A stretch of DNA of 16,590 nt from Archangium sp. (GTDB lineage Bacteria > Myxococcota > Myxococcia > Myxococcales > Myxococcaceae): the NCBI GenBank assembly GCA_031367385.1, contig JANLPS010000046.1:1-16590 (forward strand), read 5' to 3'. Both the position numbers and the translations under genes were made by a program. How positions within the stretch are numbered: the first letter of the stretch is position 1; each line of letters begins with the position of its first letter. The notes under the pieces are model-generated. The model was not told the DNA's origin and ran no database searches. It saw nothing but the letters and a program-made list of their open reading frames with translations. Positions 1 through 16,344 of this stretch are shown here, piece by piece.

Positions 1-899
1 GTGGAACGGGCGGAGGCACTGGCGGCGGAAGCGGGACGGGCGGCGGCACTGGCGGCGGAAGTGGCACGGGCGGCGGCACGGGAGGCGGAAGCGGTACGGG
101 CGGCGGCACCGGCACCGGCGGCGGAAGTGGAACGGGCGGCGGCACGGGCGGCGGAACAGGCGGCGGAAGCGGAACGGGTGGCGGCACCGGCGGCGGAACC
201 GGAACGGGCGGCGGCACGGGCACTGACGGTGGCACCGGCGGCGGAACCGGAACAGGCGGCGGCACGGGCACCGACGGCGGCGGCACGGGCGGCGGAACTG
301 GCGGCGGAAGCGGAACGGGTGGCGGCACCGGCGGTGGAACCGGAACAGGCGGCGGCACGGGCACTGACGGCGGTGGCGCAGGTGGCGGCTCGGGAAGCGC
401 CGACGCGGGCCTGCCTTGTCACGTCGTGATCAACGAGCTCAAAGCACAGCGAGCCCTCGACGGTGGCCTCAGCGATGAGTTCGTCGAGCTCTTCAACACC
501 TGCCAGGTCTCCTTCACCTTCAACGTCGGCACGCTCGAAAAGCACTTCCCCGGTGGAGCCATCACCACGCTCGCCGACCTCAGCGGCCTCACCATCGCAG
601 GCAACGGGTTCTTCCTCATCGCCGGCCAGGAGTATTCAGGCACCCAACCCAGCGATGCCCTCTTCACCTCAGCCGATGTCATTCCAGCCTTCGGGGGGGG
701 CCTCATGATCACCGCGGGCGCCGGGGTGATCGACGCAGTCTGTTGGGGCAACGGCGCGACGACTGGCGCGTGCGAAGGGCAGGGGCTTCAGGCGCTATTC
801 GGCAACTCGAGCTTCGCGCGCACGCCGAACGGCAACGACACCAACAACAACTTCCGCGACTTCGTCACTTCGGTCGCCACGCCCAGGGCCGCGAACTAG
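1..899 (+). CDS. 5'-truncated secreted/surface protein: Gly/Thr/Ser-rich linker followed by a C-terminal lamin tail domain (LTD)
   Basis: Frame starting at nt 3 is open to TAG at 897-899. It reads GTGGGTGGGSGTGGG...GTDGG...SADAGLPCH, then VVINELKA...DEFVELFN...GFFLIA...IDAVCWG...SFARTPNGNDTNNNFRDF...TPRAAN, the typical bacterial LTD signature. The start lies upstream of the window. Confidence 0.8.
   Translation, partial: GTGGGTGGGSGTGGGTGGGSGTGGGTGGGSGTGGGTGTGGGSGTGGGTGGGTGGGSGTGGGTGGGTGTGGGTGTDGGTGGGTGTGGGTGTDGGGTGGGTGGGSGTGGGTGGGTGTGGGTGTDGGGAGGGSGSADAGLPCHVVINELKAQRALDGGLSDEFVELFNTCQVSFTFNVGTLEKHFPGGAITTLADLSGLTIAGNGFFLIAGQEYSGTQPSDALFTSADVIPAFGGGLMITAGAGVIDAVCWGNGATTGACEGQGLQALFGNSSFARTPNGNDTNNNFRDFVTSVATPRAAN
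3..400 (+). repeat. Low-complexity coding repeat (GTGGG/GGGSG/GTDGG units) with an internal 95-bp duplication (135-229 vs 276-370)
   Basis: Read directly. The two copies are offset by 141 nt and differ at three positions (158/299, 194/335, 206/347), all third codon positions in frame 3. Confidence 0.9.
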
Positions 900-11825: not shown

Positions 11826-14068
11826 ACGCTCACCTCGAGCTGCATCGGCAGCCGCCTGATGCGCCGACCAGTCAGCGCGAACACCGCATTGGCGATCGCC
11901 GGCGCGACGGGAGGTACGCATGGCTCTCCGACCCCGCCGGGCTTTTCGGTGCTCTTGATGATCTCCACCTCAATCACCCTCGGCACGTCGCGAATTCGAG
12001 CGAGCTTCGCGTCGTGAAAGTTCGACTGCACAGTGGCGCCCTTCTTCATCGTCGCGCCTCCGTAGAACGCGTGGCTGATGCCGAAGACGACCGCGCCCTC
12101 CATCTGAGAGCGCACCCGGTCGGCGTTCACGATCAACCCGGCGTCGACCACGACCCACGCGTCGTCTATCGCGATTCGCCCATCGGGCCGGGTGACCGCC
12201 GAGACGACCACTCCCACGTAGCTCAAGAAGCTGCGGTGCGCCGCGAGGCCGAGCACCTTGCCGTTCTGCTTGCGGTCGGCCCAGTTGGAGATCTGCGTCA
12301 CCCGCTCGATGACGTTGCGCAGCCGGCCCGCATCGACGGGGTGGTCTTCGAGCGTCGCTCCGTAATTCGGCAGCTGCTTCACGCCCAGCGCCTCGAGCGA
12401 CACCTTGCGTGCCGGCCCAATCACCTCGAGCCAGGTCGCCTTGGGGTCTTGGCCTTTGGCGAACGCCAGCTCATCGACGAACGAGCCCACCGCGAACGCG
12501 TGAAAAATATTGTAGACCGAGCGAAGCCACCCCACTCGTACGTGCGCGGGAGCGCGGCCGGTCTCCGCCCGAACATTCGGCGCCGCCAGCGCGAGGTCGA
12601 GCACTCCTTGCTGCAGGTCGTTCACGAGCGGAGCGCTGATTGGGGCGAACAGTGATGCGATCGGCGTGAACGCGGTGCGATGCCGCCAGGCCGTGACCGA
12701 CCCCGAGGCGTCGAGCCCGGCGGTGAGCTTCTGCGTGCTCACCGCGTTGTAATAGTCGTGCTGCACGTCGTCTTCTCGCGTCCACTGCACGCGAACCGGG
12801 GCGCCCATCTCCTTCGACAACAAGGCCGCCTCGGCCACGAAATCGGCCTTCGATTTTCGCCCGAAGCCTCCGCCCACGAAGGTCACATGCACGGTGACGT
12901 CTTTCGGGTCGATGCCCAGTACCTTCGCGGCGTTCTCTCGCGCTTCTTGCGGGTTCTGCGTGCTCGCCCACACTTCGCATCGGCCGTCGTGAAAATGTGC
13001 CAGCGCGACCGGCGGCTCCATCGGGAGATGCGCGAGGTGCGGCACGTGGTACTCGGCCTCGACCACTCTGGCGGCAGCAGCCAGCGCCTGCTCGACGTTG
13101 CCCACGTTTCGGGCGACGACCCCGGGCGTGTTGACTGATTCGCTGAGGGTCTTGCGGTACTCGTCGGAGTCGTACGCGGCGTTGTCGCCGTCGGTCCACG
13201 TGATGTCGAGCGCGGCCCGACCCCGCATCGCGGCCCAGGTGTTGTCGGCGATCACGGCGACTCCGCCCCAGGGTTGAAACACGTACGGGGGCACCGGGTT
13301 TCGAACCTGCACCACCCGCTTCACCCCCCGCACCGCCATCGCCCGCGAGCCATCGACGCTGCGCACCGTGCCTCCGACCACCGGAGGCCGCGCAATCACC
13401 GCCACCAACGTGCCCGGGAGCGTGACGTCGGCGCCATAGACGGCCTTGCCGGTGACATAGGCCGGGCCGTCGAGCAGGGGCATGTTGGTGCCGACGTGCT
13501 CGAGCTCGGCCTGGGGCCGGAGCGTGACCTTCTCGGCCCGAGGGACTGGCAGCGCGCCAGCGGCGTCGGCCAACTCAGCGAAGGTCAACTTCGCCTGAGT
13601 GCGTTGGTTCGTGACGACGTGGTTCTTGGCGAAGCAGAGCGTTGGGCTCACTCGCCACCTTTGAGCGGCAGCGGTCTCGAGCATGCTGCGCGCCGTCGCC
13701 GCGGTCAGCCGCAGCGCATCGTATTTGCCGCGAATGCTGCTCGACCCATCGGTGTTCTGGTCTCCGTACTTCTCGTCGCCGTCGGCCTGCTCGATGTTCA
13801 CCAACGCGAGATCAGCCCCCAGCTCGTCGGCCAGCAGAACCGCCAGAGAGCTGCGAATGCCCTGGCCCATCTCGGAGCGATGGCACACCACCGTCAACCG
13901 CCCATCGTTCGACAGGTGGAGAAAGACGTTCGGCGTCAGGCCCTTGCTCGCTTTGGTGGCAGGGGCAGCGACGCCCAGGGTCGGGTACAGGCCCAGCACC
14001 AGGCCTCCCGCCGAGAGGTTGAGCAATGCCAGCATCGAGCGCCGGGTCAATCGAGGCGACGGGGTCAT
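11822..14068 (-). CDS. iorB: Xanthine dehydrogenase family molybdopterin-binding subunit, isoquinoline 1-oxidoreductase beta (IorB)-like, with a Tat signal
   Basis: N-terminal LTRRSML plus a hydrophobic stretch. Motifs [50 protein letters not shown] and [18 protein letters not shown] (catalytic Glu). The substrate cannot be inferred. Confidence 0.92.
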
Positions 14069-14523
14069 GGCCCTGACCCCGCGGCCTTCTTGATCGCGGC
14101 TCGTATGCGGGTGTACGTGCCGCAGCGACAGATGTTGCCGCCCATCGACCGATCTATCTCGTCATCGGTCGGGTGCGGAGTCGACGCCAACAACGCGGCC
14201 GCGGTCATCAGCTGACCGGCTTGGCAGAACCCGCACTGCGGCACCGCGAGCTCGACCCACGCCTGTTGCAGCGGGTGACTGCCGTTGGGCGAAAGCCCCT
14301 CGATGGTGGTGACCTGCGCTGCGCCCACCCTGCTCATCGGCGTCACGCACGAACGAACCGGCCGCCCATCGAGGTGTACCGTGCATGCACCGCACAGGGC
14401 CTGCCCACAGCCGAACTTGGTACCCGGCAGATTGAGCAGATCGCGGAGCACCCAGAGCAAGGGCATCTCGGGCTCTGCATCAACATGGTGCTCCACGCCG
14501 TTCACGGTGAGCGTCAGGCTCAT
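14065..14523 (-). CDS. iorA: (2Fe-2S)-binding small subunit, IorA-like
   Basis: [52 protein letters not shown] 14523 overlaps the upstream stop (ATGA). Confidence 0.95.
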
Positions 14524-15170
14524 GGCGTTTTCTCCGCGGGGCAGTGCGCGCCGGTGGCGACCCACCCGTCGATCAGCGCTCCGAATTCACGCTGGGAGCC
14601 GGGCGCGGGCTCGCGGCGTGAGCCGGGCACCCAGCCCCACGCCACCAGCTCGTCATGCGCGCTGTGCTCTTGAATTTGCGCCAGCGTCTTGCCGCCATTT
14701 CGTGCCGGGTCTTTGAGCTGCTCGCACAGCTGATGGGGCGTTCGGCCAACCCACGCCATGATGCGGGGAGCGAGGCTCCACTTCGGTGCGCCAGGCACCC
14801 GAGCGAGTGGCTGGTTCTGGGGCTGGTGGCAGGTCCCGCACTCCATGCCCACGACGCCGTGATCCTCCGGGCCGCGAACGACCGGCGGGTCATGAATGCG
14901 TTGCTCGAGGCCCTGAAGCGGCGAGTCGCCGGCCGGGTGGCAGTTGCTGCAGCGCGGGTGGAGCATCACTTTTGTCGCCTCGATGAAGAACGCGACCGAG
15001 CGCTCCTCGTCAGAGTGCAGCGCGGCAAAGGCGCTCAGTGGTCGGAGGGTGCGGGCGTCGCCCTCAGCGGGGCTCAGTGCGTCTGCCGCGACCAAGCGCG
15101 AGTCATGCTGGCACGAGGTGCCCAGCACCAGGAGCGATGCCATCACTGCCAAGGGAACGGAGCGGATCAC
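14520..15170 (-). CDS. Dihaem c-type cytochrome lipoprotein associated with IorAB-like molybdoenzymes
   Basis: Two CxxCH motifs ([17 protein letters not shown]), lipoprotein-type signal ending LGTSC, segments [13 protein letters not shown] and LVAWGW.PG..REP.P. Translationally coupled to iorA. Confidence 0.85.
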
Positions 15171-15231: not shown

Positions 15232-16344
15232 TCACGGGCCGAATTGCAGCCCATCGCCGTTGAACGACGCGGGTTGCACTTCGAATGAGAACGGCAAGCG
15301 CTGCATCGAGCTGCCGTCGAACGGGCCGATGCTCACGGCGGTCAGAAGGCTGCCGCCATAGGTGCCAGCGCGAAGCAGCACTCCTACGCCATCGAGGTAG
15401 CTCACGTCGAACGACTTCGGGGCAAGCATGCCAGCGTTGTTTTGGGCCACCCACGCCTCGAGGTCGCACTGCTCGGGGAGCTTCAGCTCGACCTGGCCCA
15501 CCGAGACCTCGACCGATTCGCGCCCGATAGCGCCAAGTACTTGGGAGCGCGACCACTTGACCGGCTTGACCCCGTGGAGAATGACCGAGCCGACCACTTG
15601 GCTCAGCGATGGGTCGAGCAGGTTGATGGTCGCATCGCGGTAGGTACCCTCGCCACGTGCCCACTCGTTGAGCCAGTCTTTCACCGCGGTGTTGCTGCCG
15701 AAACCAGTGAACGTGACGTTGTCGACCGTACCCTGGCAGCTGCTCCAGGTCTGCCACCCACCGGCACTGGGGCCCATCGGCGTGGCAGCCCAGCGCGCCG
15801 TAATCGCCGACACCGACGAGGTGCGAAGGCCATACAGCGCCGTGGTGGAGAAGTTGCTCGCGACGCTTGCGAGCGATTTTTTGAGCACCACCGGCCTGAG
15901 CAAGCGGGGCGGGCGCTGAGCGACCAGCTCTCCACCCTCGAGCGACAGCCACGCAGGGCACAACCTGCCGGTGCAGCAGTTGTCAATCGACGCCCGCAGA
16001 GCAGCGCCACCAAGAAACGCGGCGGTTGAGCTTGGCCAGGGAGTCGTTGGCTGGCCGACCCAGTCGGTGTTGGCCGCAGGGCAGTAATTCGCTTGCGCCT
16101 CTTGGCACACCCAGGCCGTGCCGCTCCAAACCGGGTTTTGGCCCACCTGACAGGTCACGCCCGCAAGTGCCGCAGGGCCTTGAGGCCCGACGGGGCCGGT
16201 CGCTCCCATGGCCCCAGGCGCGCCCTGGTCTCCTTTCGGGCCTTGTGGGCCGGTCATGCCAGCTTGCCCTGTCGCTCCACCGGCGCCGCTCCCACCGGTG
16301 CACCCGACGAAGCCTGCGAATGCAATGACCCAGATGAAGCGCAT
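15232..16344 (-). CDS. Predicted lipoprotein (370 aa) with a collagen-like stalk and phage tail-tube (T4 gp19/Afp1-like) domains
   Basis: ATG 16344 with AAAGGG upstream; signal MRFIWVIAFAGFVG-C; 12 G-X-Y triplets; CQVGQNPVWSGTAWVC. The segment NVTF..SNTAVKDWLNEWARGEGTYRDATINLLDPS..VVGSVILHGVKPVKWS..GRESVEVSVGQVE follows the gp19-family pattern as I recall it. Confidence 0.75.
   Translation of the reverse strand: MRFIWVIAFAGFVGCTGGSGAGGATGQAGMTGPQGPKGDQGAPGAMGATGPVGPQGPAALAGVTCQVGQNPVWSGTAWVCQEAQANYCPAANTDWVGQPTTPWPSSTAAFLGGAALRASIDNCCTGRLCPAWLSLEGGELVAQRPPRLLRPVVLKKSLASVASNFSTTALYGLRTSSVSAITARWAATPMGPSAGGWQTWSSCQGTVDNVTFTGFGSNTAVKDWLNEWARGEGTYRDATINLLDPSLSQVVGSVILHGVKPVKWSRSQVLGAIGRESVEVSVGQVELKLPEQCDLEAWVAQNNAGMLAPKSFDVSYLDGVGVLLRAGTYGGSLLTAVSIGPFDGSSMQRLPFSFEVQPASFNGDGLQFGP
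16171..16278 (-). repeat. Collagen-like (Gly-X-Y)12 coding repeat
   Basis: GAT GQA GMT GPQ GPK GDQ GAP GAM GAT GPV GPQ GPA (aa 23-58 from ATG 16344). Confidence 0.92.

Follow-up and report, generated by a model that had tools for sequence, protein, structure and literature searches.

The window analysed here is a 16,590-nucleotide stretch of Archangium sp. DNA (contig JANLPS010000046.1). A gene at the end of this 16.6-kb contig, P0001, encodes a protein with a collagen-like stalk, and the locus raises the question of what the head beyond the stalk is built from and how its parts are connected. Tube-fold proteins are parts of phage tails, tailocins, contractile injection systems (CISs) and the type VI secretion system, and the duplicated forms known to us are either tandem fusions or hubs. 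We found that residues ~201-291 of P0001 are homologous to the gp19/PF06841 tube family, and profile comparisons confirm two C-terminal halves (C-halves) of the tube sequence in the head. The order of the head is firm: about 110 residues, then one C-half, then another. For its completion as a nested two-module tube head on a trimeric stalk we see about an even chance. The gene and the parts of its product are listed below (aa, residues of P0001; HMM, hidden Markov model; AF2, AlphaFold2; P0123, P0124 and P0125 are relatives described in the next section).

15232..16344, minus strand: whole gene P0001 (coding 15235-16344; stop 15232-15234), 370 codons plus stop, starting MRFIW, from the list of open reading frames (ORFs) and its translation
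16300..16344, minus strand: aa 1-15, putative signal peptide with lipobox-like FVGC (Cys15), MRFIWVIAFAGFVGC, assigned by eye
16171..16296, minus strand: aa 17-58, collagen-like stalk of 14 uninterrupted G-X-Y triplets, from a regular expression and Pfam PF01391
16033..16170, minus strand: aa 59-104, neck containing a disulfide hairpin (motif C65..W..G..W.C80) and C88, conserved in P0124
15865..16032, minus strand: aa 105-160, proposed N-terminal half (N-half) of an outer domain A, N(A), Cys-rich, without significant tube signal
15472..15864, minus strand: aa 161-291, inner tube-like domain B of gp19/PF06841 type, probably complete, supported by the gp19 HMM (11-13 bits on aa 206-270), hhalign, MAFFT and AF2
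15262..15471, minus strand: aa 292-361, second tube C-half, C(A), with the Trp helix DLEAWV, strands and IGPFDGSS, from family-profile hhalign (template 60/62-127)
15235..15261, minus strand: aa 362-370, conserved C-terminal tail NGDGLQFGP, kept in P0123 and P0124 and missing from P0125

Tube homology of the head and its relatives

The head was compared with tube proteins by means of a local gp19 HMM, built from 20 PF06841 proteins of genomes of the same order and run with filters off. Positions 48-116 of this HMM match aa 206-270 of P0001 (11.0 bits, E 1.4e-5 as a single comparison), a segment that comprises the Trp helix together with the strand preceding it and three more strands. None of 3000 shuffled sequences reached this score (maximum 6.6), and when all six frames of the genome are scored (53,132 ORFs of 80 aa or more), the P0001 ORF ranks first for the HMM. 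Across 400 genomes of the same phylum, where no match to P0001 was better than E 0.001 per genome, the best match was a true PF06841 protein, L023 (123.9 bits in Pfam), with 22 of 57 residues identical over aa 209-265 in BLASTP and in the same register as the gp19 HMM. With the P0001 head as phmmer query, 12 of 20 unselected gp19 proteins came within the top 1000 of 53,152 sequences, a count that overstates their independence because gp19 proteins are kin of one another.

An exhaustive phmmer search of 1.84 billion representative proteins, with P0001 as query, returned four matches, namely three relatives and one single-domain tube protein:

P0123: fragment of 129 aa, 84% identical to P0001 and belonging to its family
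P0124: 391 aa, with 41% identity to P0001 along the entire head (E 2e-55), carrying 24 collagen triplets as well as the neck and head seen in P0001
P0125: 632 aa, E 3e-4 to P0001, with a signal or anchor, a long coiled-coil-like region, two neck hairpins and the same head
P0126: 149 aa, E 1e-3 to P0001, an ordinary gp19 protein with 102.5 bits in Pfam

The layout of P0001 is common to all three relatives found, P0123 being a fragment. P0125 clears the PF06841 cut-off in Pfam with 49 bits, which P0124, at 16 bits, does not. The tube sequence of gp19/PF06841 type that a preliminary description had noticed in P0001 is thus borne out by the HMM, by the shuffles and by the chain through P0125. The family of stalked tube heads is extremely rare, with these three relatives and P0126 among 1.84 billion representatives. 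A word-indexed search of 5.8 billion proteins with P0001 returned a single copy, identical at 369 of 370 positions, and no relative, and the word-indexed search with P0125 returned P0125 itself and nothing else. None of 60 close genomes had a match to P0001, and neither did a phage collection of 50,697 records. Degenerate-pattern scans of genome and metagenome collections gave no head relatives, and pattern scans with P0124 and P0125 as queries gave matches to collagen or neck only. The PDB sequence search with P0001 yielded a chance match (E 1.4) and nothing else. The ESM Atlas held nothing usable for P0001; for aa 340-632 of P0125 it gave a best score of 0.81, a lead only, with PF06841 in 16% of the members of the top cluster.

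Family profiles extend the match. In hhalign comparisons with gp19, domain B aligns with Prob 88-92% and E 5e-7 to 3e-6. With alignment A1, which comprises four family sequences and was compared with 20 gp19 proteins, aa 201-284 align to template positions 42-128 (Prob 88%, E 2.9e-6). The profiles reach template positions ~40-129 only, and domain B was never aligned at positions 1-40. In MAFFT, 12 gp19 proteins lie contiguously on aa ~160-293. AF2 run with the MAFFT-derived alignment (17 rows) gave a mean predicted local distance difference test score (pLDDT) of 55, with 62-82 across aa 159-291, and run on the single sequence of the whole protein it gave a mean of 34. Foldseek matched the AF2 model to tube proteins of extracellular CISs (E 1.3e-5, TM 0.73 on the target), and VIA matched it to a CIS tube protein (Z 12.2, root-mean-square deviation (rmsd) 2.4 Å over 135 residues), all listed rows covering domain B alone. 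Together these results support the assignment of aa ~160-291 as a tube-like domain that is probably complete.

Evidence for a second C-half comes from P0125 and from the family profiles. In P0125, the gp19 HMM finds two consecutive C-halves, at 460-530 (HMM positions 40-116) and at 550-624 (HMM positions 62-131), with no N-half between them; a C-half-only HMM gives the first 14.1 bits and the second 16.0 bits, values that none of 1000 shuffles of each attained. With A1, aa 292-355 of P0001 align to template positions 60-127 (P 0.006). Taken alone, C(A) scores 23.7 (E 1.2e-3) when P0001 is the master and 30.9 (E 4.9e-5) when P0125 is, and column-shuffled controls have a mean of 10.6 and a maximum of 19.5, none of 60 reaching the real score with either master. 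C(A) also matches C(B), the C-half of domain B, profile to profile (E 1.6e-3 with P0001 and 4e-5 with P0125 as master), compared with E 0.3-0.8 for N-versus-C control pairs, and it starts 3-5 residues past the end of C(B) in P0001, P0124 and P0125. The two parallel C-halves that had been proposed, at aa 221-287 and 294-361, are upheld in that register by the family profiles and the shuffled controls. The internal repeat checked directly by pairwise Smith-Waterman alignment came out at chance level (z 0.26; 38% of 2000 shuffles score as high).

Domain order and completion of the outer domain

Because no N-half lies between the two C-halves, a tandem N-C-N-C order is excluded, and N-N-C-C, either nested or with a half-domain, is the sole reading left. 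The preliminary description had placed domain B inside domain A, in the order N(A)-N(B)-C(B)-C(A). The results back this proposal in its tube homology and in its N-N-C-C order, and leave N(A) a putative tube N-half. Nesting is the simplest and most likely completion of N-N-C-C, and a leftover half-domain its main rival.

In the nested arrangement, domain B (aa ~161-291) would be inserted in a more degenerate domain A (aa ~105-160 plus 292-361), at a point between the 'ITLKR'-type strand and the Trp helix of A, and the N-terminal segment of aa ~105-160 would complete domain A. A collagen triple helix is a trimer, and the 14-triplet stalk would make P0001 a trimer as well; a trimer is also favoured because a coiled-coil stalk replaces the collagen in P0125. 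Three chains with two tube modules each could close one Hcp-like pseudo-hexameric ring, which would be displayed on a stalk ~12 nm long. In alignment A1, P0001 and P0124 lack ~20 N(A) residues that are present in P0125 at the site of the long hairpin of tube proteins. This shortfall agrees with the shortened hairpin that had been described for A, and such a hairpin may prevent rings from piling up as a tube. As to function, we can only guess that the ring binds a partner in or on it.

Several observations are in line with this arrangement. The segment of aa 105-214, at 110 aa, has a size that fits two N-halves. In the spliced family profile of domain A, whose match is partial (template 39-127, Prob 49-59%, E 1-2e-4), the end of N(A), RPVVLKKS, lifts the score to 30.2 from 24.5 +/- 1.0 with the N(A) columns shuffled, a value reached by 0 of 40 shuffles. 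With P0125 as master the gain is marginal, 1 of 40 shuffles reaching it. Backing for N(B) is indirect, through its contiguity with gp19 proteins in MAFFT and through the AF2 model.

Other results weigh against this arrangement. No tube N-half signal was obtained in aa 105-160 or 161-214 of P0001 or in their counterparts in P0124 and P0125. An N-half HMM gave -1.3 bits on aa 100-160, matched by 119 of 1000 shuffles, and no score on aa 145-210; the best pairwise N-half matches were equalled by 23 of 100 and 29 of 100 shuffles, and N(A) against N(B), profile to profile, gave E 0.2-0.3. The best case was N(A) of P0125, with 28 of 1000 shuffles as good in one test and 4 of 100 in another. The N-half-like segments proposed earlier at aa 109-157 and 163-212 are thus confirmed by no statistic, whether HMM, pairwise or profile-profile. 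Spliced as a single sequence, aa 109-157 plus 291-361 did not match the gp19 HMM (-2.2 bits), and no spliced profile gave a full-length match, so the splice test of domain A left the partial match of the family profile and nothing for the single sequence. In the AF2 model, aa 83-149 and 292-331, hence most of domain A, fall below pLDDT 50, and the strand VVLKKSL (aa 152-158) may be the first of B and not the last of N(A). The second C-half of P0001 as a single sequence scores -1.3 bits, matched by 99 of 1000 shuffles, and its support runs through the alignment with P0125, four sequences in all. Domain B is touched too. The genome-wide E of its gp19 match is 1.3, with the runner-up ORF 1.2 bits below. 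P0001 stays below the curated PF06841 cut-off of 28.2 bits in Pfam, with no match at E <= 10, and Pfam, NCBIfam and PHROGs match its collagen part and leave the head without a match (NCBIfam and PHROG matches are restricted to the stalk, at 26 bits against family cut-offs of 325-500). The AF2 fold of domain B shows compatibility and is not independent proof, since the gp19 rows in the alignment drive the fold.

How much the silence of the N-halves means depends on domain B. Its own N-half is equally invisible, so the silence of N(A) is not evidence against N(A), and the splice test does not discriminate, since bona fide domain B also never aligns with template positions 1-40. The same consideration bears on the possibility, which we regard as real if somewhat doubtful, that the head holds one and a half tube domains. 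B alone would then be whole. The stretch of aa 292-361 would be the leftover of a partial duplication that packs as a helix-plus-sheet extension or supplies additional strands, either to B or to the chain next to it, and aa 105-160 would form a Cys-rich subdomain of unrelated origin; a trimer would possess three whole tube modules and would not close a ring of six. Such a head fits with the failure of every test to give an N-half signal for aa 105-160, with an AF2 pLDDT below 50 there, and with the character of this segment, which holds Cys 123, 124 and 129 without counterparts in P0125 and is the least conserved part of A1. However, a missing N-half signal means little when N(B), which lies in a tube-folding domain, cannot be detected either. 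Moreover, aa 105-160 are of the right length for an N-half, splicing their end to C(A) raises the score, and N(A) of P0125 is marginally above shuffles. We also know of no C-half that forms a stable unit of the tube fold by itself, which counts against a leftover C-half.

Even if both modules are complete, their halves may be paired differently, with modules completed between chains or crosswise (N(A) with C(A) of the next chain, or N(A) with C(B) and N(B) with C(A)) and the ring held by domain swapping. Crosswise splices match nested ones in hhalign score (E 1.6e-5 to 3.7e-5 for N(A)+C(B); E 2.4e-6 to 1.3e-4 for N(B)+C(A)), so that sequence cannot tell the pairing of the halves. We nevertheless consider swapping unlikely, as gp19 proteins are contiguous on N(B)+C(B), which AF2 models as a single domain. 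Very improbable, finally, is a chance resemblance, in which an unrelated beta-rich fold would carry coincidental tube-like motifs. The lack of a curated library match to the head and the genome-wide E of 1.3 would agree with it, and the region had been chosen by eye in the preliminary description, so the test was not fully pre-specified. On the other side stand the chain from P0001 through P0124 (E 2e-55) and P0125 (E 3e-4 library-wide) to PF06841 (49 bits), the failure of all 3000 shuffles to reach the real gp19 score, and the direct retrieval of P0126, a true gp19 protein, among 1.84 billion proteins.

The gene, its stalk and neck, and the genomic setting

The residue numbering of the preliminary description matches the MRFIW start, with aa 109-361 corresponding to 15262-16020. 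The G+C content at third codon positions (GC3) is 0.78 in the P0001 gene, compared with 0.80-0.87 in neighbouring genes. The third codon position is the most G+C-rich one throughout aa 61-370, and upstream of Met1 GC3 falls to 0.57-0.60. The frame and start are sound, since GC3 is steady along the gene and drops before Met1; the same steadiness rules out a frameshift or wrong frame as an explanation for missing homology. A scan for promoters and terminators gave nothing meaningful. From its sequence, with a signal predicted by eye, P0001 is likely a lipid-anchored, extracytoplasmic lipoprotein. It has eight cysteines besides that of the lipobox, conserved with P0124, which fits an extracytoplasmic, oxidising compartment. 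The head extends ~265 aa beyond the neck and holds five further Cys, and its compactness suits structural study. Two of these, C203 and C293, might staple the base of the proposed insertion, which is a guess.

The stalk scores 28.3 bits against PF01391 over aa 14-60, above the Pfam cut-off of 27.2. P0124 has 24 G-X-Y triplets at the same place as the 14 of P0001, and the head that stands on collagen in these two proteins stands on a coiled-coil-like stalk in P0125, which fits a head that works as an oligomer. AF2 gives the neck hairpin (aa 69-82) a pLDDT of 61-65. A Cys-flanked hairpin of the pattern C-x2-G-x2-P-x-W-x-G-S/T-x-W-x-C is present at aa 65-80 of P0001 (16105-16152) and aa 78-93 of P0124, twice in P0125 (aa 255-270 and 323-338) and several times in an unrelated fibre-like protein of 1304 aa (L044:4432-8346:+). 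In secreted proteins that are not otherwise related, it recurs immediately behind a stalk, be it collagen, Gly-rich or coiled-coil, and it looks like a portable neck or junction element.

The neighbours of P0001 are a two-CXXCH protein, a [2Fe-2S]/molybdopterin (Fer2_2/MoCoBD) oxidoreductase pair and a MobA-like gene. The two-CXXCH protein, of 216 aa, is encoded directly downstream of P0001 (14520-15170, minus strand) and has a signal-like N-terminus, two CXXCH haem-binding motifs and no family match in Pfam or NCBIfam. There is an overlap between its gene and the beginning of the gene for the [2Fe-2S] subunit (14065-14565) of the molybdopterin oxidoreductase, and the 216-aa protein is possibly a cytochrome partner of that enzyme. 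Gly-repeat and collagen-like ORFs are numerous in the genome, where 28 six-frame ORFs have at least 8 G-x-x triplets, some of them surely spurious; examples lie at 3-899 (plus strand) of the window and on contigs C90, C210, C331, C362, C434, C494 and C546. The first ORF of the window is a (T/S)GGG repeat protein without a family. Several of the collagen stalks in the genome precede different Cys-containing heads.

A search of the genome (98% complete) for further PF06841 genes gave 0 matches at E <= 1, and genes for a sheath, gp25 or Hcp (PF04984, PF04965, PF05638) were not found either; the PF06841 family is present in 34 of 80 other genomes of the same order. Since none of these genes was found, the tube fold seems to be used here outside any injection machine. 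If this is true and the proposed ring forms, a building block of phage tails would have been reused as a free-standing surface ring, and nesting would represent a new topological route to a pseudo-sixfold ring.

Comparison with known systems

The closest known counterparts of domain B are the PF06841 tube proteins, such as Afp1/Afp5, Pvc1/Pvc5 and those of AlgoCIS and the Streptomyces CIS, to which it aligns along their whole length. CIS tube proteins superimpose on the P0001 AF2 model with Z 10.7-12.2 and rmsd 2.4-4.9 Å over 129-144 residues, and the motifs NVTFTG, DW helix, INLLDP and PVKW are common to both. Unlike these proteins, P0001 has a putative signal peptide, a collagen stalk, eight non-lipobox Cys and a second half-domain after B, and it lies outside a sheath/baseplate gene cluster.

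Two tube modules per chain are known from phage tails. Both T5 pb6 (PMC5717097) and P74-26 TTP (PMC10034513) have a tandem arrangement of domain 1, linker and domain 2 and form trimeric pseudo-hexameric rings. With its proposed two tube modules per chain P0001 would resemble them, and a six-module ring from three chains would follow by analogy. It differs from their tandem arrangement by its N-N-C-C order with no N-half between the C-halves, and whereas pb6 and the P74-26 protein polymerise into phage tails, P0001 appears as a stalked lipoprotein without phage context. PMC5717097 also describes hubs of the gp27/VgrG type as linked otherwise than pb6.

The gp27/VgrG hubs are trimers with two tube-like domains per chain and pseudo-sixfold symmetry. 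P0001 has no hub or VgrG family match in Pfam at E <= 10 and, unlike these hubs, is without needle, lysozyme or OB domains and is much smaller.

Another group is formed by tandem double-PF06841 'phage tail-like proteins' of ~300-330 aa, of which 1803 were found at E <= 1e-5 (members include L040:1597-2523:-, L040:271-1170:-, L039:2535-3521:+, L038:2988-3962:+ and L037:2094-3164:-). They have two tube modules per chain, as proposed for P0001, and occur in the same bacterial order; some have a signal peptide or a Tat-plus-lipobox leader, and their genes adjoin response-regulator, TPR and PAP2 genes, away from injection-system genes. Unlike P0001, they have the N-C-N-C order and no stalk. An HMM of five members scored 4.9 bits against P0001 (7.2 on aa 245-370, 0 of 1000 shuffles), and one of 121 sequences scored -0.6 bits. 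As the signal of the small HMM is gone with the large one, a specific kinship of P0001 with this family was rejected. The tandem proteins may form trimeric pseudo-hexameric rings of their own.

With respect to the stalk, Scl1/Scl2, Lcl and collagen-like phage tail fibres are like P0001 in that a G-X-Y stalk carries a globular head; P0001 differs from them by an unrelated head and by a putative lipobox anchor instead of LPXTG. A full-text literature search, mostly at title and abstract level, found no published description of such a stalked tube protein.

Taken against these systems, P0001 departs from known tube proteins in three respects: it appears to be secreted and stalked, its head may be a tube within a tube, and its genome has no sheath, baseplate or Hcp gene that could be found. 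It is tempting to speculate that it represents a third, independent route to two tube modules per chain, a tube-in-tube that would form a single non-stacking surface ring on a stalk, anchored to the envelope of a bacterium without an injection machine, but we offer this tentatively. Duplicated tube modules as such are already known; what is new in P0001 lies in the topology proposed for its head, in the architecture of a stalked lipoprotein and in the context in which the tube fold occurs.

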